A DNA stretch of 33,970 nucleotides, taken from the UHGV virus genome UHGV-0040082. One strand, 5' to 3'. The notes beneath the pieces were generated by a model. That model had not been told where the DNA came from, did not search any database, and was given only the letters and a program-made list of their open reading frames with translations. The first letter of the stretch is position 1, and every line of letters begins with the position of its first letter. A program made the position numbers and the translations under genes. Below, in pieces: positions 14,573 through 27,791 of the stretch. This stretch comes from a virus.

Positions 14573-17500
14573 ATGATTTACACAACTGGAACAGTTGCCA
14601 TTAACGGCAATACTGTTAAAGGCACGGGAACAAACTTTTCCGCGCCGCTTTCTCTTATTCGTGTAGGTTGCACGCTCATTGCTGTTGGCAATCCTGTGCA
14701 GATCTTTACCATCACGGAAATTAAAAGCGGCACTGAACTGTTAGTGACGCCAGCAGCTAACCCCGCAATCCCTGCCGGGACAAAATTTAGCATCCTGCTA
14801 TCTGATTCGATCTCAGTTGATGGGCTTGCTCAGGACGTAGCTGAAACCCTGCGTTACTACCAGAGCAAAGAAACAGAAATCGCCTCCGCCGTAGAGTGGT
14901 GGAATGAGATCGGCGGCGAAGGTCAGTTGGATCAGCTTCTTACCAACATTCGCGCAGAAACAGCCAAATCAACCGCTAACGCTCAAAAAACAGAAACTGA
15001 CAAAAACGCAGCAGAAGCGTCAAAAACAGCGGCTGCAAAATCCGCCACGGCAGCGAAAACATCAGAAACCAACGCTAAGGCAAGCGAGACGGCAGCGAAA
15101 ACAAGCGAAACCAAAGCCAAAACATCAGAGGACAGGGCGCAAGAATATCTGAATCAAATGGGAAGGCTTACCAGCCCAATGGTCCAATGTGCTTGGCCTG
15201 TTGAAACTAGCGGTAATGGCGCTTACGTTAAGATTGCTAAACTTAGCGATCCAAAGTCATCAGACTGCCACTTAACGCTAATGGTTACAAATGGCGGTGG
15301 CTACGGTTTAAGTTACGGGAATATTGACTTTATAGAGATCTCCGCTCGAGGTCTTAACGACACAGGCGAAGTAACCAGTGAAAATATATCTAAATTTTTA
15401 AGTATTCGCCGACTCGGTTCACCAAACCTTCCCAATAATAGTCAAATGTGTTACGGCCTGGTTAAAGGTGACGGCTATATCGAGGTCTGGTGCTACCAGC
15501 GATCTTATATTAAAAACACAAAAGTAGCGGTGCTGGCGCAGACTGGCAACACGGAATTATACATTCCTGAAGGATTTGTTAAGCAAGCCGACGCACCCGC
15601 TGGATATATTGAAAGCCCAGCAGCAAGGATTTACGACCAGGTAAACAAACCCAGCAAGGCAGATCTGGGCCTTTCTAATGCTATGCTTACAGGCGCTTTC
15701 GGTCTTGGCGGTAGCGGGATATCAACAACCGGCAAGATGAGCGATGTAGAGATCTTAAAAGCTCTGCGTGACAAAGGTGGTCATTTCTGGCGCAGTGATA
15801 GGCCGACCGGAAGTACGGCGACCATTTATAGCCGCGGTTCTGGTATATTCTCGCGGTGCGGCGATACGTGGTCGGCGATCAATATCGACTACGGAACAGG
15901 TAAAGTCAAGGTTTACGCTGGTAACGATGGTGGACTTAATAGTGGTAATTTTTCCGTCAATGAGCTATACGGAACCAAAAATAAACCGTCGAAATCGGAC
16001 GTTGGACTTGACAACGTAACCAACGATGCACAGGTTAAAAAATCCGGCGACACCATGACTGGCGACCTGTCGATCACTAAAGCAACACCTTCGATATACA
16101 TTCGTTCAAAAAGTGGAACCGCCCATGTATGGTTCCAGAATGAGGATCAATCGGAACGCGGTGTTATCTGGGCGCCTACCAATTCCGAAGGACTTGGCGA
16201 AGTTCACATCAGGGCCAAAAATACAAAAGGTGAATCAACTGGTGAACTCATTGTTCGTCACGACGGGGAAATTAGGGTTCCCAGTCTCACAGCGAGTAAA
16301 AAAATAAAAGGCGCAACCGCAGATTTTACAAACACATCAGAAACCACGACGGAGAACACGTTAAAAATCAGCGGTAAGCAGCATACACCGTTAGTTTTAA
16401 CGCGTACCGGGTATTCTGAAAACCTGTCCATTGGCTTCAAGGTTGATAACGTTGTTCAAAAATACCTCGGTATTAATAGCGGTGGGGATCTGTGTTTTGG
16501 TGATTATGCCGATCACAAAACAAACAGCAAAGTTATCACGCAAGCAGTGCTTGATAGCGGTGTGACGGTAGGCGGTCAGACAACCTTTTCTAAACTTGCC
16601 ACATTTAGCAAAGGCATGACCGGGCCTATCGTACCGGAAGGGCTTGACTCACGTACCATTGATCTTAATGACCTAATCATCAATGGTTCAGATATAGGAT
16701 CGGTCAAATACTATCAATGTACATCTTCCAGTGGTGGAGCGAACATTACCAACAAGCCTGACGGCGTAGGCGGTAACTTCTTGCTGCGTGTAGAGTCAGT
16801 CCGTAAAGTTAGTGATACTGACTATATAAGTATGCAAACACTGACTAGTGGCGACAAAGAACGCGTATTTGTTCGTTTTAATACTAATAGTAAGTGGACA
16901 GCATGGTGTGAACCTGTTGTATCGGGATGGAAGCAGGATGTGTCTGTTAAGACGCTAACAGCAGCCGAAGACGTCATCCTTAAAAACAGTGATACTGGTC
17001 CGCGCCTTATTTTAAGGAACTCTAACACATCGGCGCAGTCGTGGAGTGTAAGGGTGTGGGGTGAAAGCGGAAGGGAAAGCGTTTTTGAGGTTGGTAACAG
17101 CAATAGTTACATGTTCTATGCTCAGGAAGATGCAGCAGGAAACAAGAAATTTGACTTTAACGGTGATATTTCATGTAAGACGCTATATCAAACTTCTGAC
17201 CAGAGCCTTAAAGACAACATTAAGGTTATAGGTGACGCCACCGAATCCATCCGCAAAATGAATGGGTACACCTACACGTTTAAGGACGATGGCCTGCCTT
17301 ACGCTGGCGTTATTGCACAGGAAGTAATGGACGCGCTGCCTGAAGCGATAGCGTTTACCACTCTTTGCGGCAAGGAGCTACAAGGACCAACAACTGACGG
17401 CAACATCTTACGCGAGGAAATGAAGTGCCTCAGCGTTGACTATGCGGCGGTGACTGGTTTACTTGTCCAGGTGGCACGCGAAACGGATAACCGCGTCACC

Positions 17501-17608
17501 GAACTGGAAGAGGAGAACGCAAGCCTGAAAGCTAACATTGCCGCAATGGATGAGCGGATAGCAAAACTTGAAGCGCTTATCAGTCAGTTGACCGGAAGCG
17601 AAGAATAA
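14573..17608 (+). CDS. Side tail fiber with C-terminal intramolecular chaperone (peptidase S74-like) domain
   Basis: 1011 aa; Ala/Thr/Lys-rich heptad-like N-terminal repeats; C-terminus has SDQSLKDNI...GVIAQEV...P.A motif typical of self-cleaving fiber chaperone domains, then a coiled-coil tail; RBS GGAG. Confidence 0.8.
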   Translation: MIYTTGTVAINGNTVKGTGTNFSAPLSLIRVGCTLIAVGNPVQIFTITEIKSGTELLVTPAANPAIPAGTKFSILLSDSISVDGLAQDVAETLRYYQSKETEIASAVEWWNEIGGEGQLDQLLTNIRAETAKSTANAQKTETDKNAAEASKTAAAKSATAAKTSETNAKASETAAKTSETKAKTSEDRAQEYLNQMGRLTSPMVQCAWPVETSGNGAYVKIAKLSDPKSSDCHLTLMVTNGGGYGLSYGNIDFIEISARGLNDTGEVTSENISKFLSIRRLGSPNLPNNSQMCYGLVKGDGYIEVWCYQRSYIKNTKVAVLAQTGNTELYIPEGFVKQADAPAGYIESPAARIYDQVNKPSKADLGLSNAMLTGAFGLGGSGISTTGKMSDVEILKALRDKGGHFWRSDRPTGSTATIYSRGSGIFSRCGDTWSAINIDYGTGKVKVYAGNDGGLNSGNFSVNELYGTKNKPSKSDVGLDNVTNDAQVKKSGDTMTGDLSITKATPSIYIRSKSGTAHVWFQNEDQSERGVIWAPTNSEGLGEVHIRAKNTKGESTGELIVRHDGEIRVPSLTASKKIKGATADFTNTSETTTENTLKISGKQHTPLVLTRTGYSENLSIGFKVDNVVQKYLGINSGGDLCFGDYADHKTNSKVITQAVLDSGVTVGGQTTFSKLATFSKGMTGPIVPEGLDSRTIDLNDLIINGSDIGSVKYYQCTSSSGGANITNKPDGVGGNFLLRVESVRKVSDTDYISMQTLTSGDKERVFVRFNTNSKWTAWCEPVVSGWKQDVSVKTLTAAEDVILKNSDTGPRLILRNSNTSAQSWSVRVWGESGRESVFEVGNSNSYMFYAQEDAAGNKKFDFNGDISCKTLYQTSDQSLKDNIKVIGDATESIRKMNGYTYTFKDDGLPYAGVIAQEVMDALPEAIAFTTLCGKELQGPTTDGNILREEMKCLSVDYAAVTGLLVQVARETDNRVTELEEENASLKANIAAMDERIAKLEALISQLTGSEE

Positions 17609-17666: not shown

Positions 17667-17812
17667 ATGTACCAAATAGTGACCAAATACCCAAAACCAA
17701 AAACAAAAGCACTGTAACATACTGTTTTATAAATTATTATTCACAAAGCTAACCATTCCAAGCATACGGCAGATGGCAGGGCGACCAAGAAGAATTGTTG
17801 TCGTTTTATCCA

Positions 17813-18475
17813 TTATCTTTTCCCCGTGTATTCAACGTGTCCGATACATCCATCAATAATAGCTTGCGCCATATTGCGATAATCGCACGAAAAATCATTG
17901 TCACGGCTAAAGTCAATCTCGCTTGCCGCATCTTCACCCATTACCTTAGTGGCAAGTGCGAACGCTATTTCAGCGAGCGCCTTTTCTTTCGGGTCAATGT
18001 GAATGCGGTAAGAGTATTTCTTCCATGCTACAGTTGTTTCCGTTTCTGATACTAATTTACTGTGAGCGATAGCCCAATTATCACCGAGATATAAAAACTT
18101 AACGACATCGATAACCGTTCCGCTCGTAAGTCCTACACAATCAAGCCACACACCAACCGGAGGCTTTTCACATGCCAGCCATTCCGTTTTTTCAGGTTGT
18201 GTTTCGCAATCATGGTGCTCATCTTCGATTAATTCATCAATAATTTCACTTTCTTTATTCATACCGTCATCATCCTTATTCGATAAATTGGCGTATTTAT
18301 CAAATTTCCAGCTTGCAGCCATAACCGAATAAGTGCCGCCAGTGTCAGCGCGAACACCCAATAAATAGTATGATCCAAAATTATATTCCGTGTGGCATGT
18401 TGTTACCTCAAACGATGGGTAACACTCAGGGTTGGCGCGATGGCTAATCACGCCAATTGCTTTAAGTTTATTCAT
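17813..18475 (-). CDS. Hypothetical protein (220 aa), last gene of the minus-strand early operon
   Basis: Good RBS (GAGGA); no domain recognised; acidic central segment. Confidence 0.5.
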   Translation of the reverse strand: MNKLKAIGVISHRANPECYPSFEVTTCHTEYNFGSYYLLGVRADTGGTYSVMAASWKFDKYANLSNKDDDGMNKESEIIDELIEDEHHDCETQPEKTEWLACEKPPVGVWLDCVGLTSGTVIDVVKFLYLGDNWAIAHSKLVSETETTVAWKKYSYRIHIDPKEKALAEIAFALATKVMGEDAASEIDFSRDNDFSCDYRNMAQAIIDGCIGHVEYTGKR

Positions 18476-19106: not shown

Positions 19107-19667
19107 TCAAAACAATTGCAATTGAAAACGTTCGCTGACTTCTTTCATTAACTGCTTAACATGTTTCTTATCACGCTTTCGCTGAGTTAACAGGCGGCTT
19201 CCAACCTTGCCGACCGTTTCGCTATCAGTAGCAAAACTGCTTACTGCATTCATTACCTGTTCACAGCTTGCGCCGCAACAAATAAGACCCTTAACGTGTT
19301 CAGCCATGTCATCATGTGTTTTAGGTTTTTCTCCGTAATAGCCATTATGACGAATAGATGGCAATACTTCCTCAAACACCCAATCCTGGAAGCGTTCGGC
19401 TGATTCAAGTTTTGAATGCATAATCAAGCGGAAAACATCCGGTTCGTAAATCAGGCCAACTCCTTTCGGCTTGAATCCGAATCCTAATTCTCGCGTTTTG
19501 CGAGAATCAAGTTTAATCAATGATTTACAGTGTTTTTTAATAGCATCATGCTCGTTCTTATAACCTAACGCGCGAGCAACATTAACAGCAACAAAAGCTG
19601 GCTTATCTGCATAAATAACCGTTTGCACTTGTTTATCATCAAACGAGAATTTAACAACCTTATTCAT
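19107..19667 (-). CDS. Bro-N domain protein (antirepressor-like)
   Basis: N-terminal Bro-N-like segment (AVARALGY..EHDAIKKHCKSLIKLDS ... SKLESAERFQDWVFEEVLPSIR); paralog of the ORF at 23783-24520. Confidence 0.7.
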   Translation of the reverse strand: MNKVVKFSFDDKQVQTVIYADKPAFVAVNVARALGYKNEHDAIKKHCKSLIKLDSRKTRELGFGFKPKGVGLIYEPDVFRLIMHSKLESAERFQDWVFEEVLPSIRHNGYYGEKPKTHDDMAEHVKGLICCGASCEQVMNAVSSFATDSETVGKVGSRLLTQRKRDKKHVKQLMKEVSERFQLQLF

Positions 19668-19857
19668 GTTTTACCCCTTTATAACTTTCGTTTCGCGCCT
19701 TCATAATCATTTGAAGGCTGATTAATTTAGAAGAAGTCATAAAAGCGCTTTTTAAGTACCTCATATCAACAACAACAGGATTATCAGGATCGCCGCCGCG
19801 CATGTATTCCGCAATTGTGCTTAAGTCTTCAACTGTCAATTCCAATTCACTGTTCAT
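19660..19857 (-). CDS. Hypothetical small protein (65 aa)
   Basis: Start placed at the internal ATG (MNSELEL) preceded by AAGGGGG. Confidence 0.3.
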   Translation of the reverse strand: MNSELELTVEDLSTIAEYMRGGDPDNPVVVDMRYLKSAFMTSSKLISLQMIMKARNESYKGVKHE

Positions 19858-19867
19858 GATCGCCCCC

Positions 19868-20074
19868 TTACACAATCCGCATTGTGTTTCGTAATTCTCC
19901 GCGCAACGCCCGTAATGCATCGCGCATCGGCACGAAAACCCGGTTAAATTTTACGTGTTTATATTTCCGCATTAGTGGCGGCGTATACACCATTGCGTCG
20001 TATACTTCCCACGGATAATAAACACGCGTATCGTCAACAAACGTTTCAACTGAATAAAAAATTACACGCCTCAT
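19868..20074 (-). CDS. Hypothetical small protein (68 aa)
   Basis: ORF with plausible RBS; no domain recognised. Confidence 0.3.
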   Translation of the reverse strand: MRRVIFYSVETFVDDTRVYYPWEVYDAMVYTPPLMRKYKHVKFNRVFVPMRDALRALRGELRNTMRIV

Positions 20075-20088
20075 AGTTCCAACCCCGT

Positions 20089-20598
20089 TTAACCGTTAAG
20101 TTTTTCAATCTCAAATACTGGTTTATCAGGCAGTAGGCCGTTATCTTTACGGTATTCGTTTAATAAGTTACTAAAATTAAATGCGACAACATTTGAATAA
20201 CCATAAAAACGCGCGTTTCTGAAAAAATATTTACCGTCAAACTTATTAACAGTTAGTAGGTTCTCACTTCCTAACATCCGCAATATTCTGCCGACCTTTC
20301 CTTTGTTTATATTAATATTCAATTCATTCTTAACATCTTCCGCTGAAAAATACCCGCTACTATTTGAAAACAAAGGGATTATATCCCTTATCGCCATTTC
20401 CCTTACTGACTTCAAGCAATATGATAATCTTTTACTATTTAGATCTACTTTTATAATAACGCCATCAGAAACCAAAGCATCCAAAGCGCAAATTATTTCA
20501 CCTTCCGGTCCAGGAATAGATTTAACTATCGTTCCCTCACCTGAAATAACAGCGTCATTTAAAAAATCAATTATTTGTTGCTGGTATGAAGTTTTCAT
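20089..20598 (-). CDS. Hypothetical protein in a strongly AT-rich island (about 169 aa)
   Basis: Start at MKTSYQQ with GAGG RBS; a sampled 60-nt stretch is ~25% GC versus ~50% in the neighbouring helicase gene. Confidence 0.5.
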   Translation of the reverse strand: MKTSYQQQIIDFLNDAVISGEGTIVKSIPGPEGEIICALDALVSDGVIIKVDLNSKRLSYCLKSVREMAIRDIIPLFSNSSGYFSAEDVKNELNININKGKVGRILRMLGSENLLTVNKFDGKYFFRNARFYGYSNVVAFNFSNLLNEYRKDNGLLPDKPVFEIEKLNG

Positions 20599-20674
20599 TT
20601 TTAGCCTCGTTTTAAACGCGAAAACAGCCACCAGAAAGCGGTAAACTTTCCGGCAAGCTGTTTGCTAATATTGA

Positions 20675-22090
20675 TTAAAAAGATGCGTTATTCTGATTGT
20701 TTCGTTGGTTAAATCGGCTTGCGCGATGATTCATAGACTGAATACATGCAGACGCTGCGCGGGCCTGGTCACAAGGGAGGATATTGCCGTTGTCATCAAA
20801 CCGCTGGTAAACAGTACCAGTTTTCCCGTGACGGTTTTTAGATACAATTATTTCCATGTATTCGCGTGCTACAGACTGCTCATCGTAATAACCATCGCGG
20901 TAAACCATGATGATCCTGTCAGCGTCTTGCTCAAGGTTCCCTGAATCTCGAAGATCTGAATTATTAGGGCGCTTGTTAGGTCGTTCCTCAACGCGGCGGG
21001 ATAACTGGGCCAGCGCCAACACTGGTACGCGCAATTCTTTCGCCATCATCTTCAACGACCATGACAATTGCCCTACAGCGAGATCGTGACGTTCGGCTTT
21101 AGCCAGCTTCATTAAACCGATGTAGTCAATCATTACCATGCCCAGGTTTGGGTGATCCTGCTTCATGCGTTCCGTTGTTGCGCGTATTTCCTCAACCGTT
21201 AACTGCGACGCGTCAACGATCCACACCTCAAGATTAGCAAGTGCGCTCATACCCTGGCCGACATGCGCCCAACCCTCATCATCAAGTTTTACCGGATTGC
21301 GCAGGCAGTCAGTTGATAAATTACCAGCGCCAGCAATGGCCCGTTCAGTCATCTGATCGAGTGACATTTCAAGCGTAAACAGCAAAACGCCTACCCGCTG
21401 ACCTTCGCCACCAGGGTAAGGGCGCTCGGCAGCCTCGCGAGCAATTGCAAGCGCCAACGCAGATTTACCAGACCCAGGACGTCCGGCGAGAAGTACCAAA
21501 TCAGTAGCGTTAATTCCGCCTAACATTTCGTCGAGTGGTTCTATACCTGTTTTGATGTTGTCAGAATTGACACCGCATTCCATGCGCTTGCTTAAAACGT
21601 CCGTATACTCCTGTACCGCATCACGCAACAGAACCGGAATGATCTTGTCTTTCGTTACCTTTAATTTTGAATACCGGGAATCAAAATCTTTCATCGTCTC
21701 TTTGACGACTTCAAGCGTCCCCGTTTCCAGCTTGTAGCGCATATCGTCGATGAGTTCCAACATCTGCCGCCGCTGGTGCTCTTCACGTAGTAGCTGTGCG
21801 TATCCCTTCAGGTTGGCAGCAGAAGGACACGATCGCGCCGTTTGCATTAGCGGTACAAAGTTTTCATTGCCAATCTCATCGCCAACTAATAACGCGTCGA
21901 TAAGATTCCTGTTTCTGGCTTGCGCCCGGATAACTTCAAACGCACGTTTATAAAGCGGGATCGTGAACACTTCAGGATCAAGTGTGGCGAGAACATCTTG
22001 CGCGTTAGGAGTAAGGCCACCTAACAGTAGCCCGCCGATAACTGACGCTTCACGTTCCTGCCGTAGTGAGTTTATTTGCTCAGTTACCAT
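20675..22090 (-). CDS. DnaB-family replicative DNA helicase
   Basis: 471 aa; N-terminal DnaB-like domain, Walker A GRPGSGKS, C-terminal RecA-like fold motifs. Confidence 0.85.
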   Translation of the reverse strand: MVTEQINSLRQEREASVIGGLLLGGLTPNAQDVLATLDPEVFTIPLYKRAFEVIRAQARNRNLIDALLVGDEIGNENFVPLMQTARSCPSAANLKGYAQLLREEHQRRQMLELIDDMRYKLETGTLEVVKETMKDFDSRYSKLKVTKDKIIPVLLRDAVQEYTDVLSKRMECGVNSDNIKTGIEPLDEMLGGINATDLVLLAGRPGSGKSALALAIAREAAERPYPGGEGQRVGVLLFTLEMSLDQMTERAIAGAGNLSTDCLRNPVKLDDEGWAHVGQGMSALANLEVWIVDASQLTVEEIRATTERMKQDHPNLGMVMIDYIGLMKLAKAERHDLAVGQLSWSLKMMAKELRVPVLALAQLSRRVEERPNKRPNNSDLRDSGNLEQDADRIIMVYRDGYYDEQSVAREYMEIIVSKNRHGKTGTVYQRFDDNGNILPCDQARAASACIQSMNHRASRFNQRNNQNNASF

Positions 22091-22124
22091 TATGTTATTG
22101 CCTCCGGTTTACAAAATGGAAAAT

Positions 22125-22631
22125 TCAGGGTAAAGAAATACCGTGATTGCTATGAAAGTTATACATTCTTTCAGCTTCTTTTCTTGCTTTTACGGCATCA
22201 TCAAATGAGTCACCGTAATAAACGTATATTGTTTTCTTTTTCCCATCAGACCCCCTTATACCTATTTGCGCGCGCCATTTATTAGTTTTCTTGTTCCATG
22301 TAACGCCAACGCATCCGCTGGTGTTACTTGATGGTATTGTTTTATTTCTGTTGTTCTCCCTCCTTGTAACCATCCTTAAGTTTTCGATTCTATCATCGCC
22401 AGGCACATGATTTATGTGATCTATTTCCATTCCATCAGGGATAGGGCCGTTAAACATTTCCCAAATAATGCGGTGACGCCATGTACAACACACACCATTA
22501 ACGCGGATAGTCCAATATCCGCTATGATGCCTACTTCCAGCAACGTCACCGGCTTTTGTTTTGTTATTTGCGCGGTTACAAGACCAATATAGAACACCGT
22601 CCCTATAGGTAAATAAATCATCCCACATCAT
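22125..22631 (-). CDS. HNH homing endonuclease with AP2-like domain (second copy)
   Basis: EIDHINHVPGDDRIENLR motif followed by GCVGVTW...W.A.I motif; start overlaps the stop of the upstream gene; paralog of the ORF at 3976-4500. Confidence 0.75.
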   Translation of the reverse strand: MMWDDLFTYRDGVLYWSCNRANNKTKAGDVAGSRHHSGYWTIRVNGVCCTWRHRIIWEMFNGPIPDGMEIDHINHVPGDDRIENLRMVTRRENNRNKTIPSSNTSGCVGVTWNKKTNKWRAQIGIRGSDGKKKTIYVYYGDSFDDAVKARKEAERMYNFHSNHGISLP

Positions 22632-23748
22632 GACACACCACCATTTCAGGCCTATATACAAAGCGACCAATTTCGCCATAATCAGGACTGTAAATGATAA
22701 CCGCCGCGCAACGTTGCGATCTCCATCCTCCATTAGTTGAATAAGCGTCTTTGCCCGCTAACGTGCCGTGGTGTTCAACTATGCCTATAGATGATTCTGT
22801 TACTGATTTATGGTGCAAATGTCCGACATGGACGTAAACATATTTCGACTTGCCGAAATCCTCGCGCCAGTCAGCTACGCAAGCAGCCAATAAATTTTCC
22901 GGCTTTTTAATAGTGTGCCCGTGGTGGTAAGCAAGAAATGTTTTACCGTACTGCGTGTGGTGGACGATAGCAGGTGACACATCAACCGTCACGCGCGGTT
23001 CATCTTCGTAAAAAGCCGCCAGCGCCGCACGTAGCCAAATCATGCCTGACTGATCGTGATTGCCTGACAACACCTGGATTTCAACATCCTTATGATTTAA
23101 CAACATTTTACCTACCGCCCGCCGGACAGACCGGATCGCCACATAAACAAGTTTTGCGTAGCGACTATCTTGATCAAGAATGTGCCCGCTTATTGGCGTC
23201 ACCGGGACCATACCGTCAGAATGAAGCAGATCGCCACCGAGGAGCAGTACGGCTTTTTCAGACATCGGAGCAGCGCCAACAGCGTAGTCAAAGAAGTCAT
23301 TCAACACGCGCTCAGCGATCCCAGTGTCGTAGCTCTCGCCGCATTCAGCTTTATGAGCAAGCGCCCCGATATGCAGATCAAACACCGGATAAAGGGCCAG
23401 GCTTTTTTGAAAATCAATTTCAGGCACTGGCACAGCCTCCGCGCGTGGTATTTCATCCGTGAAAGCGTCGCGGGCCGCTTCCATTAACTGTTCCATTTCG
23501 TCGCGGTCACGGGCTGTTTTAATCCAGCGCATGATCACATTGCCATCCTTATCGACGAGCAATGACTCAGCATTGACGCCAAAACCCGGTGCGCGACGCG
23601 TGGATATTAAACCGCGTTTCGCCAGTTTTGCGCCTAGCCGCTCGACGTTGCGTTTTGACATGCCATATTTTTCAGCGATCTGCTTGTACGTTAAACCGTT
23701 GTTATATTCAGCGATCAATTGCTCATCGCTGATTTTTCTTTGTGACAT
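22618..23748 (-). CDS. HTH domain fused to calcineurin-like metallophosphoesterase
   Basis: N-terminal HTH (LTYKQIAEKYGMSKRNVERL); then phosphoesterase motifs in order: DLHIG, GGDLLHSDG, GNHD, YHHGH, GHLHH. Confidence 0.7.
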   Translation of the reverse strand: MSQRKISDEQLIAEYNNGLTYKQIAEKYGMSKRNVERLGAKLAKRGLISTRRAPGFGVNAESLLVDKDGNVIMRWIKTARDRDEMEQLMEAARDAFTDEIPRAEAVPVPEIDFQKSLALYPVFDLHIGALAHKAECGESYDTGIAERVLNDFFDYAVGAAPMSEKAVLLLGGDLLHSDGMVPVTPISGHILDQDSRYAKLVYVAIRSVRRAVGKMLLNHKDVEIQVLSGNHDQSGMIWLRAALAAFYEDEPRVTVDVSPAIVHHTQYGKTFLAYHHGHTIKKPENLLAACVADWREDFGKSKYVYVHVGHLHHKSVTESSIGIVEHHGTLAGKDAYSTNGGWRSQRCAAVIIYSPDYGEIGRFVYRPEMVVCHDVG

Positions 23749-23782
23749 AGTGTCATTTCCTCACGAATAACAAATTGTATAC

Positions 23783-24520
23783 TTAGTTGCAAGTTAAAAG
23801 CTCAGTGATCCATACTTGTCCTTTAGCAGTGAATACAGCCTGCTCATATCCATCGTGAGTTACCCTCATTTCACCGTAGCCCTCATCAATAAACCACTGA
23901 CTGAATACACGGCGGCGACAGCGAAGATCATAAACACCAACCGCCGAAAGTTTTCTGTTTAATTTTACGGCTGACATTCCCAGCGGTTTAGCTACCTCTG
24001 AAGCCGTTCGGTGCATATCGTTTTTGACTATCGCGTCACATACAGCCGCTTTCGGAGCCAGCACTTTATTTTCAAGCGCAAGACGTTCATTTTCTTGCTT
24101 AACTAACAATTTTTGCTCGTATTCATTAGCCCACGCCCGCGCCGCTTCCGCAGGGTTAGAGAAGTCAGGCAAAGCAGGTTTGCAACCGTAACACCCATTT
24201 TCACGCAAAGCCGGAAGAACCTCCTCGCACACCCAATCCTGGAAGCGCTCGGCTGATTCTAATTTTGATCTCATAACAAGACGGTATATATCTGCCTCTC
24301 GAATTATAATTATGCCTTTTGGTCTGAACCCAAAACCTAATTCCGTTGTTTTAACGGAATCAAGTTTAATCAATGACTTACAATGTTTTTTAATGGCCTG
24401 ATGCTCGTCGTTGTACCCCAGCGCACGGGCCACATCAACCGCAACAAAAGCAGGTTTACCGTCATAAATTACAGCAGTGATTTTATTGTCATCAAAATTA
24501 AAACACATCAACTCAGACAT
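23783..24520 (-). CDS. Bro-N / KilA-C-type antirepressor-like protein
   Basis: Start at MSELM with GGAGA RBS; N-terminal Bro-N segment near-identical in places to the ORF at 19107-19667; longer C-terminal domain. Confidence 0.7.
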   Translation of the reverse strand: MSELMCFNFDDNKITAVIYDGKPAFVAVDVARALGYNDEHQAIKKHCKSLIKLDSVKTTELGFGFRPKGIIIIREADIYRLVMRSKLESAERFQDWVCEEVLPALRENGCYGCKPALPDFSNPAEAARAWANEYEQKLLVKQENERLALENKVLAPKAAVCDAIVKNDMHRTASEVAKPLGMSAVKLNRKLSAVGVYDLRCRRRVFSQWFIDEGYGEMRVTHDGYEQAVFTAKGQVWITELLTCN

Positions 24521-24652
24521 TGTAATTTCTCCGTAAAACGCTCTACAACGCAAAAATCCCACCGCGTAACCCGTTTGCACAGGTTGCAGTGTCTTATTGC
24601 GCCAGAGGCGCTATCAGGTGGCTAATTTTCGATTTACAGACTGGTATGTAGG

Positions 24653-24754
24653 TTATGGATTGATTAGCAGGTACAAACCGCCGAACAAAGCGACGTTAAC
24701 AGCGATTGCAGCAGCGATGGCAAAGGCCAGGGCGAAAACGTGTTTACCGTCCAT
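24653..24754 (-). CDS. Possible 33-aa hydrophobic peptide
   Basis: MDGKHVFALAFAIAAAIAVNVALFGGLYLLINP; RBS GAGAGGA; shares a 17-nt leader (CGTTTTAGAGAGGATTT) with the upstream AntA-like gene. Confidence 0.3.
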   Translation of the reverse strand: MDGKHVFALAFAIAAAIAVNVALFGGLYLLINP

Positions 24755-24768
24755 TTTTTAAATCCTCT

Positions 24769-25407
24769 CTAAAACGAATTATTAGAAACGAATTTTCTGT
24801 ATGGCTTAGGTAACGAAGGAGTGTTGCCGCCAAATAACAACCTTATCGCATTAACAGAAAACTCAACATACATAAACGGTTCACCATCAGCATGATAGCC
24901 AACCTGTTGGCGAGCAAGCCCGCGAAGCGCCATAGACGGCGTAACAATCCAGCCATTATCAACCTTTTGAACCATGCCCAGCTTTGCAGCAGCCTTATAA
25001 ACTTCACCAGACTTTCCAGGCAAGATTTTCCCTGGAGTAAGGAATACACCCTCAAGCATGTTGATCAGGCAATCATTTTCCTTGCGTAACTGCGCTGCCT
25101 CTTTCTCTCTTTCGATGAAGTAGTCACGAACCGCGCGCCCCTTAGGTGTGTGCTGGATCATCGCAATGTGTTTTGCTGCCTCAACAGTCAGAAAATATTC
25201 AGATGCTGGGCGGCCTCCATCCAGGTTATGAACATTTTTGTTCAAAACCTCAAAATCCAAAGACTTACGCAACCCGCACGCCTTTATCTGACGCTTTATC
25301 CACATGTGATAAGGAGTTTTAACACCCATTGCCTCATGTAACTGGCGACCGTCAACAGCCTCGCGCGTAACGCCGTCCATATCCTTAACAACAATATCGA
25401 ACTTCAT
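24769..25407 (-). CDS. AntA-domain antirepressor-like protein
   Basis: 212 aa; N-terminal region resembles the AntA/AntB family; RBS GAGAGGA. Confidence 0.5.
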   Translation of the reverse strand: MKFDIVVKDMDGVTREAVDGRQLHEAMGVKTPYHMWIKRQIKACGLRKSLDFEVLNKNVHNLDGGRPASEYFLTVEAAKHIAMIQHTPKGRAVRDYFIEREKEAAQLRKENDCLINMLEGVFLTPGKILPGKSGEVYKAAAKLGMVQKVDNGWIVTPSMALRGLARQQVGYHADGEPFMYVEFSVNAIRLLFGGNTPSLPKPYRKFVSNNSF

Positions 25408-25540
25408 TTCAAAATCCTCTCTAAAACGCTCTCTAACGAGCTAAACCGCTAAAGATATGCAATCGTAGCACCATGCGTGTTTTAGCTCGCTGGTGAGCTT
25501 GTTTTGTGGGTAATTTTTGATTTTTGCTGATCGTGGTTGG

Positions 25541-26587
25541 TCAAAGAGCGCCACATCGTGTATCACGTAGCGTTTTTGGTTTAAGTAGAAAATCCAGTGT
25601 CGCAGTAAAGCCATTGCCGAAGTAAAAATCTGAAGCCGTGTTTTTGAACGTTTCAAAGTAGGCGACAAAGCCGTTGATGCTTTTGTCTTTCAGGTAGTCA
25701 GTGAACGCATAAATCTTGCGTTCAAGATCCCTATCCAGTTCGGCAGGTGGCAACAGGCCATCAAACGTGCTGTTAAATGCCTCCACTACGTCGGCAGCGT
25801 TTGCAGTGGCTGACAGTTTGCGCCATTTTTCAGCATCAGCCAGATACCCATCAAATTTAGTTACCCGGCAAATGTTTATAGGCTTAGGTGTTCCACCACG
25901 GCTACGCCATTGCGTTAAAGCCCACTCAATCACTAATGTGATCTCATCCTCCGTATACGCTTTACGTGTTTTTGTTTCTGTCAGTAGTTCGATGAATGGC
26001 TTCGCATCACGACATTTGCATCCTGCCTTGTCGTTGTAGAAGGCCAGGCAACGCAACGCCGCTTCGTTTACGCCATCATGATTGACATGTTTTTCTTCTG
26101 GGGGGATATAAGGGGGTATATTTTTAATGTTCTCTTTACTGGTTATATATGACTGGTTAGGGTGACTCTGTGTCACTACCCCCGGTGACTCTGTGTCACT
26201 ACCCTGGTGACTCTGTGTCACTACCCCCGGTGACTCTGTGTCACTACCCTGGTGACTCTGTGTCACTACCCCCGGTGTCACAGTGACACTACCATGCAAT
26301 GACGGAAGGACTATTACATAGAAATTACTAGTTTGCTCTTTTCCTCCGATTAAGTATCTTGGTTGTTTAATCAACAACCCTTTTTCACAAAGTGAGTCTA
26401 CAGCCCTCATAGCTGTTCTTTTGCTGATCTCACACTCCTTTGCTATGTGATGGTAAGAAGGGTAACACTCGCCGTTATCATTAGCGTTATCAGCTAACTT
26501 CAACAGCACTAGTTTGTGCATTGGGTCGCCGACCTCAGTATGGAAGACCTCTACCATTAGCCGCATACTCATAAGCATTAACCTCAT
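25541..26587 (-). CDS. Replication initiator (lambda O-like) containing the origin iterons
   Basis: N-terminal winged-helix/HTH segment, internal peptide repeats GVVTQSHQGSDTESP x3 encoded by DNA iterons, gene sits upstream of the DnaB helicase. Exact start uncertain. Confidence 0.65.
   Translation of the reverse strand: MRLMLMSMRLMVEVFHTEVGDPMHKLVLLKLADNANDNGECYPSYHHIAKECEISKRTAMRAVDSLCEKGLLIKQPRYLIGGKEQTSNFYVIVLPSLHGSVTVTPGVVTQSHQGSDTESPGVVTQSHQGSDTESPGVVTQSHPNQSYITSKENIKNIPPYIPPEEKHVNHDGVNEAALRCLAFYNDKAGCKCRDAKPFIELLTETKTRKAYTEDEITLVIEWALTQWRSRGGTPKPINICRVTKFDGYLADAEKWRKLSATANAADVVEAFNSTFDGLLPPAELDRDLERKIYAFTDYLKDKSINGFVAYFETFKNTASDFYFGNGFTATLDFLLKPKTLRDTRCGAL
26161..26293. repeat. Origin-like iteron array: five 22/23-bp direct repeats plus one palindromic variant
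   Basis: ggtgactctgtgtcactaccc(cc/t) repeated five times (26161-26273), then ggtgtcacagtgacactacc; each unit has internal dyad symmetry GTGAC..GTCAC; AT-rich tract at 26100-26160 on the downstream side. Confidence 0.7.
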
Positions 26588-26839: not shown

Positions 26840-27143
26840 ATTCTATCTCCTATGATTAGAGTGAACGCGCGGGCGGGCATCCCATTAGCATTAGATAGCA
26901 GTGACTGACCGCTCAACAGATCCCGCCGTTGCGTGATATTTGTTTTTCGCTTCGCAGCGACACCGGATTTTTAAAGAGCTTAAGGCGTCGGCCTTTTTGT
27001 GCTTTCCCTTATCTTTTTCCTTGCATCATTGCAAGTATGGCTTTACCTTGTCAGCAAGTTTACAGAATGGCGCTAACGGGTCAAGACTTAAAAAACACGT
27101 TTTGTGACTTGCATCAAAATTTTTTAGGTTATAGGGTAGCGAC
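26840..27143. promoter_or_regulatory. Divergent control region between Cro-position gene and repressor gene
   Basis: 304-bp intergenic region between divergent starts; repeated element CTTGCATCA at 27019-27027 and 27109-27117, the first within inverted repeat TTGCA-N4-TGCAA; weak TTGCAT/TATAGG promoter-like pair just before the repressor ATG. Confidence 0.45.
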
Positions 27144-27647
27144 ATGAAAACAAAATGGTATGACTTAGCAAAACAACTCATGCGGGCGCAGGGCATGAGC
27201 CAGGATTCATTGGCTGATCTTATGGGGATAACCAAAGGCGGCCTTTCTCACTGGCTGAACGGTCGCCGTGAGCCGAATCTTGAAGATATTGCGCGTATCA
27301 TGCGGGCGCTTGGGCGTCGGCAATTCACTGTTACTCATGACGGAATGGTCATTGATGATTCTGTTTCTAACACGTTGCTGGGAGCGCCACCGCGTGATTT
27401 AGGCAGTTATCCGGTTGTTGACTGGAAGGATGTAGCAAACAATATGGAAGGCACACACCGATCAACATTGCCACACGTTGCTACTAGCGTTATTTGTTCG
27501 GATGATAGTTATTGGCTGGTTGCTAAAGGTGAATCAATGAACGCACCGCAGGGGTTAAGCATCCCGGCGGGGACTATGATACTCGTTGACCCGCACGCGC
27601 CAGCTATTGACGGAAAACTTGTTATAGCACAACTGGAGGAAGGGTAG
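27144..27647 (+). CDS. CI-like repressor (HTH plus S24 peptidase domain), ended prematurely by in-frame TAG
   Basis: N-terminal HTH (MSQDSLADLMGITKGGLSHWLNGRREP), S24 Ser motif GESM; TAG at 27645-27647 comes before the expected catalytic Lys segment. Confidence 0.75.
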   Translation: MKTKWYDLAKQLMRAQGMSQDSLADLMGITKGGLSHWLNGRREPNLEDIARIMRALGRRQFTVTHDGMVIDDSVSNTLLGAPPRDLGSYPVVDWKDVANNMEGTHRSTLPHVATSVICSDDSYWLVAKGESMNAPQGLSIPAGTMILVDPHAPAIDGKLVIAQLEEG

Positions 27648-27791
27648 ATACCTACGTTTAAGCAGTTGATTATTGATGGAGGCCGAAAACTTTTGCGTTC
27701 GCTTAATCCGCTGTATCCGCCAATCCCTATGAATCCAGAATCAAAAATATTGGGCGTGGTGGTTGATGCGAAGATCGTAAACCTGCCATAA
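27648..27791 (+). other. In-frame continuation of the repressor reading frame after the TAG
   Basis: Same frame translates to IPTFKQLIIDGGRKLLRSLNPLYPPIPMNPESKILGVVVDAKIVNLP, resembling the C-terminus of lambda CI (..FTFKKLI..LQPLNPQYP.I.....VVGKV..), ending at TAA 27789-27791. Confidence 0.7.

Follow-up and report, generated by a model that had tools for sequence, protein, structure and literature searches.

Exchangeable regulator genes in the early operon of an mEp021-like phage and a translation leader repeated around a rare AntA-family gene

Three exchange positions for promoter-less accessory genes were found in the early operon of a 33,970-nt phage genome (the window, that is, the whole stretch of DNA analysed), and all three are occupied in it. 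The account that we consider likely is an mEp021-like early operon with three exchangeable cargo positions, an AntA insertion that duplicated a Shine-Dalgarno (SD) leader, and cargo genes that act as early accessory regulators and not as a switch. This is ordinary phage mosaicism in unusually clean detail, and current understanding is not overturned.

Results

The early operon and its cargo positions

The window is a temperate siphophage of E. coli belonging to the mEpimmI group (mEp021-like). Over the common backbone it is collinear with mEp021, 010, 013, 044, 515 and 554 and with about 45 E. coli prophages, at 87–93% DNA identity. The backbone repressor, HTH, O-like, exonuclease, DnaB, NinB and gp03 genes are all collinear with high DNA identity, and the repressor is 90–99% identical to those of the group. 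The early operon runs divergently from the cI-like repressor gene in the order HTH, O-like initiator, 33-aa peptide, slot B, exonuclease, (HNH), DnaB, ..., ninB slot, NinB. A sequence-only reading of this region is borne out: both Bro-N genes, the 33-aa ORF and the AntA gene lie where it had placed them, with ORFs and domains as described, and so does the 17-nt repeat, which is exact. The features are:

27025–27084, minus strand: promoter-like sites in the interval from the repressor gene to the first operon gene; the minus strand has no other candidates upstream of the three
25408–25445, minus strand: backbone leader TTTAGCTCGTTAGAGAGCGTTTTAGAGAGGATTTTGAA, now before the AntA ATG, holding the 17-nt copy 25412–25428
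24769–25407, minus strand: AntA-family gene, 212 aa (Pfam AntA, E 1.3e-19), an inserted cassette
24755–24776, minus strand: downstream leader copy CGTTTTAGAGAGGATTTAAAAA before the 33-aa ORF, holding the 17-nt copy 24760–24776
24653–24754, minus strand: 33-aa hydrophobic ORF, single transmembrane-like, part of the phage backbone and near-identical in all relatives examined
24521–24570, minus strand: slot-B backbone leader GCGGTGGGATTTTTGCGTTGTAGAGCGTTTTACGGAGAAATTACA before the ATG, conserved before Bro-N, pRha and (in variant form) zinc-finger cargo
23783–24520, minus strand: Bro-N + KilAC/ANT protein, 245 aa from the ATG (Pfam Bro-N, E 8e-22; KilAC/ANT, E 8e-11)
24319–24412, minus strand: central segment of the Bro-N/KilAC gene (nt ~109–202), carrying the allele of the Bro-N-only gene (max-chi-square 59.3, 0/1000 permutations)
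19466–19586, minus strand: central segment of the Bro-N-only gene (nt ~82–202), carrying the allele of the Bro-N/KilAC gene (max-chi-square 34.8, 0/1000 permutations)
19107–19667, minus strand: 186-aa protein, Bro-N (Pfam, E 3e-20) followed by an unassigned helical tail of ~65 aa at the C-terminus

The modular shuffling suggested earlier is strongly supported by comparison with about 40 related loci. All three genes occupy presence/absence or replacement-polymorphic positions, the relatives recombine N-terminal with C-terminal domains, and the Bro-N domains are mosaic. In the relatives slot B holds Bro-N+KilAC, pRha+KilAC, pRha+other, zinc-finger+T5orf172, or nothing. The slot-B leader and first codons are identical before Bro-N or pRha, a leader variant precedes the zinc-finger cargo, and the C-termini GQVWITELLTCN and GQLWVSELFACK are common to different N-domains. 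The conserved leader with the first five codons (MS[E/D]LM) anchors the slot on its 5′ side, and the exonuclease leader does so on its 3′ side; homologous recombination between them would replace the cargo, which in the window is Bro-N+KilAC. The Bro-N domain (PF02498) of this 245-aa protein scores 78.1 bits against a curated cut-off of 25.6 over a near full-length profile. KilAC/ANT (PF03374; 42.7 bits, curated cut-off 25.3) is present at aa 150–243 of this protein only, the C-termini of the AntA and 186-aa proteins giving no KilAC/ANT match even at E ≤ 10.

The 186-aa protein likewise matches Bro-N over nearly the full profile (73.0 bits, same cut-off). Its orthologues (78–91%) always adjoin ninB in mEpimmI-like phages, and a ninB slot lacking Bro-N is either empty or filled by a DNA methyltransferase. 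A slot-B Bro-N gene occurred in 0 of 14 other loci with a ninB-slot Bro-N, one contig ending before slot B. The structure model of the 186-aa protein was unusable (mean pLDDT 49.7). Across the window, PADLOC defence models matched nothing except the HNH homing endonuclease, an Rfam scan gave no match, and the 33-aa ORF had no Pfam or PHROG match.

The AntA gene and the repeated leader

The AntA protein consists of an AntA/AntB domain at aa 18–87 (PF08346, full profile, 71 bits against a curated cut-off of 27), a coiled helix, and an orphan C-terminal part of ~100 aa. The C-terminus matches no Pfam family even at E ≤ 10, does not resemble the KilAC protein next to it and, by exhaustive HMMER search, has no homologues beyond its own cluster other than marginal matches to giant proteins. 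The AlphaFold model falls below pLDDT 50 across aa 111–212. Foldseek against the PDB returned nothing at E ≤ 0.001, the best matches being weak ones to DNA-binding proteins (DdrC, CRP, GntR). Among 5.8e9 proteins only 6 clusters match it at full length, and all 6 were found at the same position in mEpimmI-like prophages.

In the window and a few rare relatives, the 652-bp AntA cassette separates the long leader from the 33-aa ATG. Megablast and blastn of the cassette DNA against 5,426 E. coli genomes and 50,697 phages matched only the leader flanks; tblastn against the phages reached at best 44% identity, in the N-domain only, and no donor was found in either collection. In the relatives the long leader ...GTTAGAGAGCGTTTTAGAGAGGATTTT.AA-ATG stands immediately 5′ of the conserved 33-aa gene, and those without AntA have this single leader directly before MDGKHVF.... 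In the window the 17-mer CGTTTTAGAGAGGATTT occurs exactly twice, at 24760–24776 and 25412–25428 on the minus strand (expected 0.12), and 0 of 100 shuffles contained two or more; the 17-nt leader said to be shared by the AntA-like gene and the 33-aa ORF is thus exact and above chance. With 91% identity, it can be followed over 22 nt. In IMG/VR the exact 17-mer is found once, before the 33-aa ORF, in 10 of 10 mEp-like contigs carrying it. Every AntA-bearing locus found reads backbone leader, AntA, short copy, 33-aa ORF, so that the short copy accompanies AntA in all AntA-bearing relatives. In loci L012–L014 the upstream copy matches the local backbone variant, and the downstream copy remains of the cassette type.

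The 17-mer is duplicated in the window because the AntA insert carries a second leader copy, and the repeated ribosome-binding leader is the scar of an AntA insertion at the start of the 33-aa gene. The rare gene entered exactly between the SD leader and the 33-aa ATG, with a second ~22-nt leader copy at its own 3′ end, so that both genes retain a ribosome-binding site. The AntA stop TAG (24769–24771) lies inside the downstream copy, 14 nt upstream of the 33-aa ATG, and AntA terminates there. Illegitimate recombination at microhomology and a donor with the same leader are candidate origins of the duplication.

The leader of the Bro-N/KilAC gene is related to that of AntA, as had also been noticed; 27 nt align at 78%, and 11 of them form an exact core, AGAGCGTTTTA. 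No site other than these two fits the pattern GTTRKAGAGCGTTTTASRGAGR (expected 0.00), and among 15 operon gene leaders only the AntA/33-aa and AntA/Bro-N-KilAC pairs stand out. The 27-nt likeness of the 33-aa and slot-B leaders may, loosely, go back to an earlier event like the AntA insertion or to a signal that both have in common. A boxA-like reading of CGCTCTCTAAC and CGCTCTACAAC in the leaders was set aside; these motifs are antisense to the operon, the published nut sites lie elsewhere (PMC11893012), and the resemblance is probably coincidental.

The two Bro-N genes

The two Bro-N domains share 68% protein identity over 119 aa, and the pairwise DNA alignment of the genes gives 68% over 357 nt and 72% over 300 nt; the C-terminal halves of the proteins are unrelated. 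Exact matches reach at most 20 and 19 nt in the DNA, and 14 aa (AIKKHCKSLIKLDS) and 13 aa (SKLESAERFQDWV) in the proteins. The "long near-identical segments" previously described do exist as exact runs of up to 20 nt or 14 aa, but the phrase is generous for genes that are 68% identical overall. These stretches arise because of one shared recombinant central segment. In sliding identities the two window genes are closest to each other in this segment, whereas its flanks are 91–100% identical to positional orthologues in other phages and 51–69% to each other. Sliding windows of synonymous sites alone were not convincing as evidence of gene conversion, and a three-sequence max-chi-square test with 1000 permutations, applied in both directions, was needed instead. 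Among conserved degenerate codons, 34 of 78 (44%) differ synonymously between the genes. As judged from these comparisons, the two Bro-N domains are old paralogues from the gene pool of the phage group and not a recent duplication, since synonymous sites have diverged and each gene has closer positional orthologues.

Promoters and repressor

A scan with a crude sigma-70 consensus, by which weak or activator-dependent promoters would be missed, revealed no promoter-like site on the operon strand from 27025 to 22613, and terminator-like sites were likewise absent from 27025 to 22700. The three genes sit downstream of the repressor-controlled promoter, whose candidate sites lie where mEp021 has its divergent regulatory region (PMC11893012). 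Neither CTGT-N8-ACAG nor a near-consensus SOS box was found in the whole window, and ORF and Pfam annotation revealed no Mnt/Arc-like genes beside the three genes. The repressor itself belongs to the LexA-like S24 family of self-cleaving proteins. Once the repressor is gone, the three genes would be co-transcribed with the replication genes, and they would act as early accessory regulators, not as the switch that triggers induction.

Discussion

Classical P1/P7 Ant1/Ant2, P22 Ant, 186 Tum and Gifsy GfoA/GfhA share Pfam names (AntA; ANT/KilAC) and a temperate context with the window genes. The AntA family name itself derives from P1/P7 Ant1/Ant2, and some proteins annotated as antirepressors contain KilAC/ANT. 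By analogy with P22 Ant, P1 Ant1/2 and the Gifsy antirepressors, the three genes could be genuine antirepressors in a multi-layer induction circuit, binding the CI-type repressors of their own phage or of co-resident prophages. P22 Ant does inactivate heteroimmune repressors of resident prophages, and early expression of the window genes could do the same. We nevertheless regard this explanation as unlikely. Classical antirepressor genes have their own promoters under LexA or a second immunity system (P22 Mnt/Arc, P1 C4 RNA), whereas the window genes, lacking a promoter-like site of their own, a LexA box and secondary immunity genes, lie inside an operon that is shut off by the repressor itself. 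Since the repressor family is LexA-like and self-cleaving, no antirepressor is needed, and since slot B may alternatively hold zinc-finger/T5orf172 cargo or nothing, the function is dispensable. PDB sequence searches with all three proteins revealed no relative among solved structures, which include Rep-Ant complexes. Moreover, tested proteins of the same architectures did other things, with SOS, host growth or the phage's own genes as targets (PMC9043618, PMC5944126). The "layered control of induction" proposed earlier is therefore without support, and "antirepressor" is for these genes a name taken from domain annotation, not a demonstrated function.

Alternatively, instead of being an insertion scar, the shared leader could act in cis and be kept by selection before three consecutive genes for their co-regulation, for example by binding an sRNA or a translational regulator or by coupling translation. 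The core GAGCGTTTTA upstream of the SD is common to the three leaders and conserved across relatives. The 3′ end of AntA can also pair with the 33-aa SD (AAATTCGTTTCTAA/TTAGAGAGGATTT; z = −2.66, 2/200 shuffles); synthesis of the peptide would then hinge on translation of AntA. However, the other two leaders do not fold unusually (z = −0.66 and +0.35), so that RNA folding gives no consistent signal across the three. No Rfam family matches, the motif precedes no other operon gene among the 15 leaders, and the sequences are nearly invariant and thus show no covariation. Descent accounts fully for the duplication, since relatives carry the leader once, and the selected element is improbable. "Reused leaders" as an independent regulatory design accordingly does not hold, one pair being the AntA-insertion duplication and the third leader conserved slot-B backbone. 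Scarcely credible is a recent in-genome duplication of the Bro-N genes with leaders that match by chance or SD convergence. The domain is the same and the central segments are nearest each other, but the 68% nucleotide identity, the synonymous changes in 44% of conserved codons and the sliding identities of the flanks refute it. The two leaders are unrelated as well, that of the Bro-N-only gene being AAGTTATAAAGGGGTAAAAC, and chance is excluded for the 17-mer.

With accessory regulators inserted or exchanged in an early operon as the preferred account, the closest tested relatives of the cargo proteins are SOS- or host-directed regulators, namely the Listeria AriS family and phi11 Gp07, and not classical antirepressors (PMC9043618, PMC5944126). 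In AriS-like regulators KilAC lowers the host SOS response and the N-domain regulates the encoding phage (PMC9043618). Of this family (phi10403S AriS, A118 gp42, Lin2418; Azulay et al. 2022, PMC9043618), Lin2418 has the Bro-N+KilAC architecture of the window protein, the N-domain of A118 gp42 is 38% identical to the window AntA domain, and the genes likewise lie among early lytic genes. AriS carries AntA and KilAC on one protein, whereas the window has them on two, the AntA protein with an orphan C-terminus. The combination of AntA, Bro-N or pRha with KilAC is thus found only in the product of 23783–24520, and BLASTP of this protein against A118 gp42 gave no similarity. Gp07 (Bro-N + KilAC) is also encoded in an early operon, just downstream of a cro-like gene, and is 31% identical to the 245-aa protein, full-length and collinear (E 2e-30); its overexpression in E. 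coli is reported to cause growth inhibition and filamentation (PMC5944126). By analogy, KilAC would act on the host through RecA/SOS damping or a block of growth or division, and the N-terminal AntA and Bro-N modules would bind DNA or another target. This analogy spans Firmicutes to Enterobacteria at 31–38% identity; the window phages infect Gram-negative hosts, the likeness to AriS is at the domain level only, and the window AntA protein has no KilAC.

Shuffling of Bro-N, KilA-N, pRha, KilAC and T5orf172 among viral regulators was described by Iyer, Koonin and Aravind (2002), as related in PMC9043618. Slot B recombines the same domain set, including T5orf172/zinc-finger cargo, and adds a population-level view in one phage group with anchors and intradomain exchange resolved. 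In the mEpimmI pangenome, variable genes concentrate in the regulation cluster and a KilAC-like antirepressor is non-core (PMC11893012); a term search of that paper did not find the AntA insertion with leader duplication. As in lambdoid mosaics such as the nin region, the joints lie at gene boundaries. Classical morons (Hendrix/Juhala) bring their own promoter and terminator, whereas AntA and both Bro-N genes have neither and reuse or duplicate an SD leader instead. The window offers a clean natural case of a promoter-less gene joining a phage operon without breaking translation of its neighbour, the insert duplicating the SD leader and borrowing its stop codon from the leader copy. At one locus, Bro-N/pRha/AntA + KilAC regulators are re-assorted, with the first five codons and the conserved leader before them as recombination anchor.

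A further and quite doubtful idea is that Bro-N aa ~28–67 form a swappable specificity cassette and that the CGTTTTA-SD leader is a preferred joint for capturing promoter-less cassettes. A segment of ~30 residues, with at least 3 alleles, may move between ninB-slot and slot-B genes, and the need to recognise one and the same DNA site or partner may have brought both window paralogues to a common allele; the leader may capture the cassettes at translation starts.

Annotations as "antirepressor" should be read with caution, as they are not evidence of induction control. Two candidate early genes are flagged by this analysis, encoding the very rare AntA protein with its orphan C-terminal domain and the conserved 33-aa membrane peptide, in a phage group often found in the human gut.

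Operon layout and relatives

All features under study lie on the minus strand in one operon, from which a LexA-like cI gene at 27144 diverges. In transcription order, the operon reads:

26839-26594 (-), HTH gene, first in the order
26587-25541 (-), O-like initiator gene with internal iterons
25407-24769 (-), AntA gene
24754-24653 (-), 33-aa hydrophobic ORF
24520-23783 (-), Bro-N+KilAC gene
23748-22618 (-), phrog_704 "DNA repair exonuclease" gene
22125-22733 (-), HNH-AP2 endonuclease gene (HNH_3 + AP2 homing endonuclease), between exonuclease and dnaB
22090-20675 (-), DnaB gene
between DnaB and the Bro-N-only gene (-), three small or unknown genes
19667-19107 (-), Bro-N-only gene
19097-18666 (-), NinB gene, last in the order

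Pfam and PHROGs bear out the domain assignments. The region is 87–93% identical, in blocks, to the mEpimmI phages mEp021, mEp010, mEp013, mEp044, mEp515 and mEp554, and likewise to MagusPhagus and the prophages of about 45 of 5,426 complete E. coli genomes. The description of the mEpimmI group notes a concentration of flexible genes in the regulation cluster and classes a KilAC-like antirepressor as non-core (PMC11893012).

Lying immediately ahead of dnaB, the HNH_3 + AP2 gene overlaps the exonuclease gene at that gene's end. It is found in mEp021, mEp010 and mEp515 and is missing from mEp554, mEp044, mEp013 and most prophages, which adds a fourth presence/absence polymorphism to the operon. 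Inside the O-like gene, four tandem ~22/45-nt repeats (GGTGACTCTGTGTCACTACCCC...) at 26138-26295 each hold a short palindrome and encode the repeated peptide GVVTQSHQGSDTESP. The array is an iteron-type origin located in the initiator gene itself, like that of lambda O. A hairpin (AGCTCGCTGGTGAGCT) followed by a T-run, at 25484-25499 between the O-like gene and the AntA leader, reads as an intrinsic terminator on the plus strand, in antisense orientation to the early operon; it is conserved among relatives.

Leader duplication and AntA insertion

The 17-mer CGTTTTAGAGAGGATTT, which the sequence-only reading had noted before both the AntA gene and the 33-aa ORF, is present exactly twice in the window (expected 0.12; two or more in 0 of 100 shuffles), and the repeat can be extended to 22 nt. 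The related leader proposed for the second Bro-N gene is also borne out, matching the AntA leader over 27 nt at 78%. A degenerate 22-nt pattern spanning these two leaders has no other match in the window, and among 15 operon leaders only the repeated-leader pairs exceed the null distribution.

Relatives lacking AntA carry a long sequence (...TTTAGC..TTTAGCTCGTTA.AGAGCGTTTTAGAGAGGATTTT.AAA) that leads directly into ATGGACGGTAAA, with which the 33-aa ORF begins. The window has this long leader too, followed there by the AntA ATG instead, and the 33-aa ORF keeps only CGTTTTAGAGAGGATTTAAAAA, with AntA coding sequence upstream of that copy. The AntA stop is a TAG within the downstream copy, 14 nt ahead of the 33-aa ORF ATG. 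An exact IMG/VR scan for the 17-mer finds 10 mEp-like contigs with one copy each, always before the 33-aa ORF; the remaining six matches are unrelated and due to chance. AntA DNA has no match in the 5,426 complete E. coli genomes or the phage collection. The duplication thus marks the place where a 652-bp promoter-less segment was inserted at a translation start, an insertion polymorphic across the phage population. In three related loci (L012-L014), the upstream copy matches the local backbone variant (GTTACAGAGAGTTATAGAGAGG) and the downstream copy stays CGTTTTAGAGAGG; therefore AntA and its 3′ leader copy travel as a unit. No donor of the cassette was found among the same genomes and phages, and the insertion may have proceeded by recombination at microhomology or by capture from a donor whose own leader was similar. 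Base pairing is possible between the AntA 3′ end and the 33-aa gene's SD (z = -2.66), which may point to translational coupling.

AntA proteins of this type form a tiny family: six full-length clusters (73–93% identity) among 5.8 billion. All members with readable context occupy the same site in mEpimmI-like prophages and show the same arrangement of two leaders. Identity between the AntA domain and its counterpart in A118 gp42 is 38%; the C-terminal 100 aa of the AntA protein are orphan and yielded no usable structure model. The 33-aa peptide (MDGKHVFALAFAIAAAIAVNVALFGGLYLLINP) is nearly invariant in every mEpimmI-like genome seen, has no family match, and is predicted to be a small membrane protein of the early operon.

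On the plus strand, the complements of the leaders at 24528-24549 and 25416-25437 (CGCTCTACAAC and CGCTCTCTAAC) resemble boxA (CGCTCTTTAAC). The likeness is probably coincidental, since both readings are antisense to the operon and the nut sites published for mEp021 lie elsewhere (PMC11893012). A second family of reused leaders is seen by eye in the phage group: the DnaB leader CCATTTTGTAAACCGGAGGCAATAACATA-ATG at 22091-22125 (-) resembles the exonuclease leader ACATTTTGTGAACCGGAGGAAGTAACATT-ATG of several relatives (L003, L002, L006) as well as the one before the second slot-B gene of mEp044.

Two cargo slots

Between the 33-aa gene and the exonuclease lies a conserved sequence, GCGGTGGGATTTTTGCGTTGTAGAGCGTTTTACGGAGAAATTACA-ATG, followed by conserved codons for MS(E/D)LM or MNELM and then by genes that differ widely from relative to relative. 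The conserved exonuclease leader anchors the 3′ side of this position (slot B), to which the third leader, before Bro-N+KilAC, belongs.

Cargo of slot B in the window and related phages, prophages and contigs (L numbers)
Bro-N+KilAC: window, mEp554, mEp515, L012, L016
pRha+KilAC: L017, L018, L037, L041
pRha with another C-terminus: L003, L010, L038
Bro-N-only gene, then pRha+KilAC: mEp044
Treble-clef zinc-finger repeats with or without T5orf172 (variant leader): mEp021, mEp013, L009, L015, L019, L044-L048
Empty: mEp010

The C-termini GQVWITELLTCN and GQLWVSELFACK are each joined to different N-domains in relatives. Slot B is a site of population-level domain shuffling, and the set shuffled is exactly the one described for viral regulators and the AriS family (PMC9043618).

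At ninB, most relatives have just 22–25 nt between a 65-aa ORF and ninB; a DNA methyltransferase fills this position in mEp021 and mEp515, and the 186-aa Bro-N gene does so in the window and a minority of prophages. Orthologues of the latter (78–91% identity) always adjoin ninB and combine freely with any slot-B cargo. AntA, Bro-N/KilAC and the ninB-slot Bro-N occur together in the window and in none of the relatives sampled.

Exchange within the Bro-N domain

The long near-identical segments ascribed to the two Bro-N genes hold for short stretches only (longest exact DNA runs, 20 and 19 nt), because the domains share 68% protein identity over 119 aa and 68–72% DNA identity in pairwise alignment, and the C-terminal parts are unrelated. 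Synonymous differences in 34 of 78 conserved degenerate codons rule out a recent duplication. The flanks of each domain are 91–100% identical to the positional orthologue versus 51–69% to the paralogue. In the centre (nt ~82/109-202, aa ~28-67), the window genes are 76–87% identical to each other, closer than to their positional orthologues (maximum chi-square 34.8 and 59.3, reached in 0 of 1000 permutations). In protein alignments this segment takes at least three allelic forms, and these are spread over both gene types. What looks near-identical is the central allele common to the two window genes, together with the invariant SKLESAERFQDWV motif.

Function of the three genes

The phenomenon is ordinary phage mosaicism with known domain families; what stands out is the leader-duplicating insertion, the slot anchors, the exchange inside the Bro-N domain, and an AntA protein that is very rare and has an orphan C-terminus. 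The sequence-only reading observed correctly and was half right in interpretation. Modular shuffling is upheld by the varying slot-B cargo, the C-termini swapped between N-domains and the polymorphic AntA insertion. Layered control of induction is unsupported: the three genes have no LexA box, the operon strand offers them no promoter- or terminator-like site of their own, and they lie downstream of a repressor-controlled promoter.

The same facts, together with a repressor of the LexA-like S24 family, count against the minority view that the genes are true antirepressors of their own or heteroimmune repressors; nothing in this analysis shows such activity. The three proteins match no solved structure, the genes match no defence model, and the window has no Rfam match. 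Along its entire length, the 245-aa Bro-N+KilAC protein aligns with phi11 Gp07 (31% identity, E 2e-30), whose KilAC half inhibits E. coli growth and causes filamentation (PMC5944126). It has the same architecture as Lin2418 of the AriS family, in which the KilAC domain damps the SOS response and the N-domain regulates the phage (PMC9043618). By analogy with these proteins, the genes are most likely early accessory regulators acting on host SOS/growth or phage transcription.

The cI-like LexA/S24 repressor gene, 27144-27791 (+), has an in-frame TAG at codon 168 (27645-27647), where 11 of 11 relatives checked encode Gln (CAG to TAG in the window). Truncation spares the HTH and the GESM serine but removes the final 47 residues along with the catalytic lysine of TFKQL; the resulting repressor probably cannot function or cannot be cleaved. 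At ~17711-17781, between the tail-fibre gene 14573-17608 (+) and the gp03 homologue 17813-18475 (-), the window lacks the int and xis/HTH genes (~1.5 kb) that occupy this position in the six mEp phages, MagusPhagus and the E. coli prophages examined. Two ~52-kb metagenomic contigs (L041 and L042) have the same junction, so an int-less sub-lineage exists. With int-xis missing and the amber codon in cI, the phage may no longer be able to lysogenise, which further weakens readings based on prophage induction.
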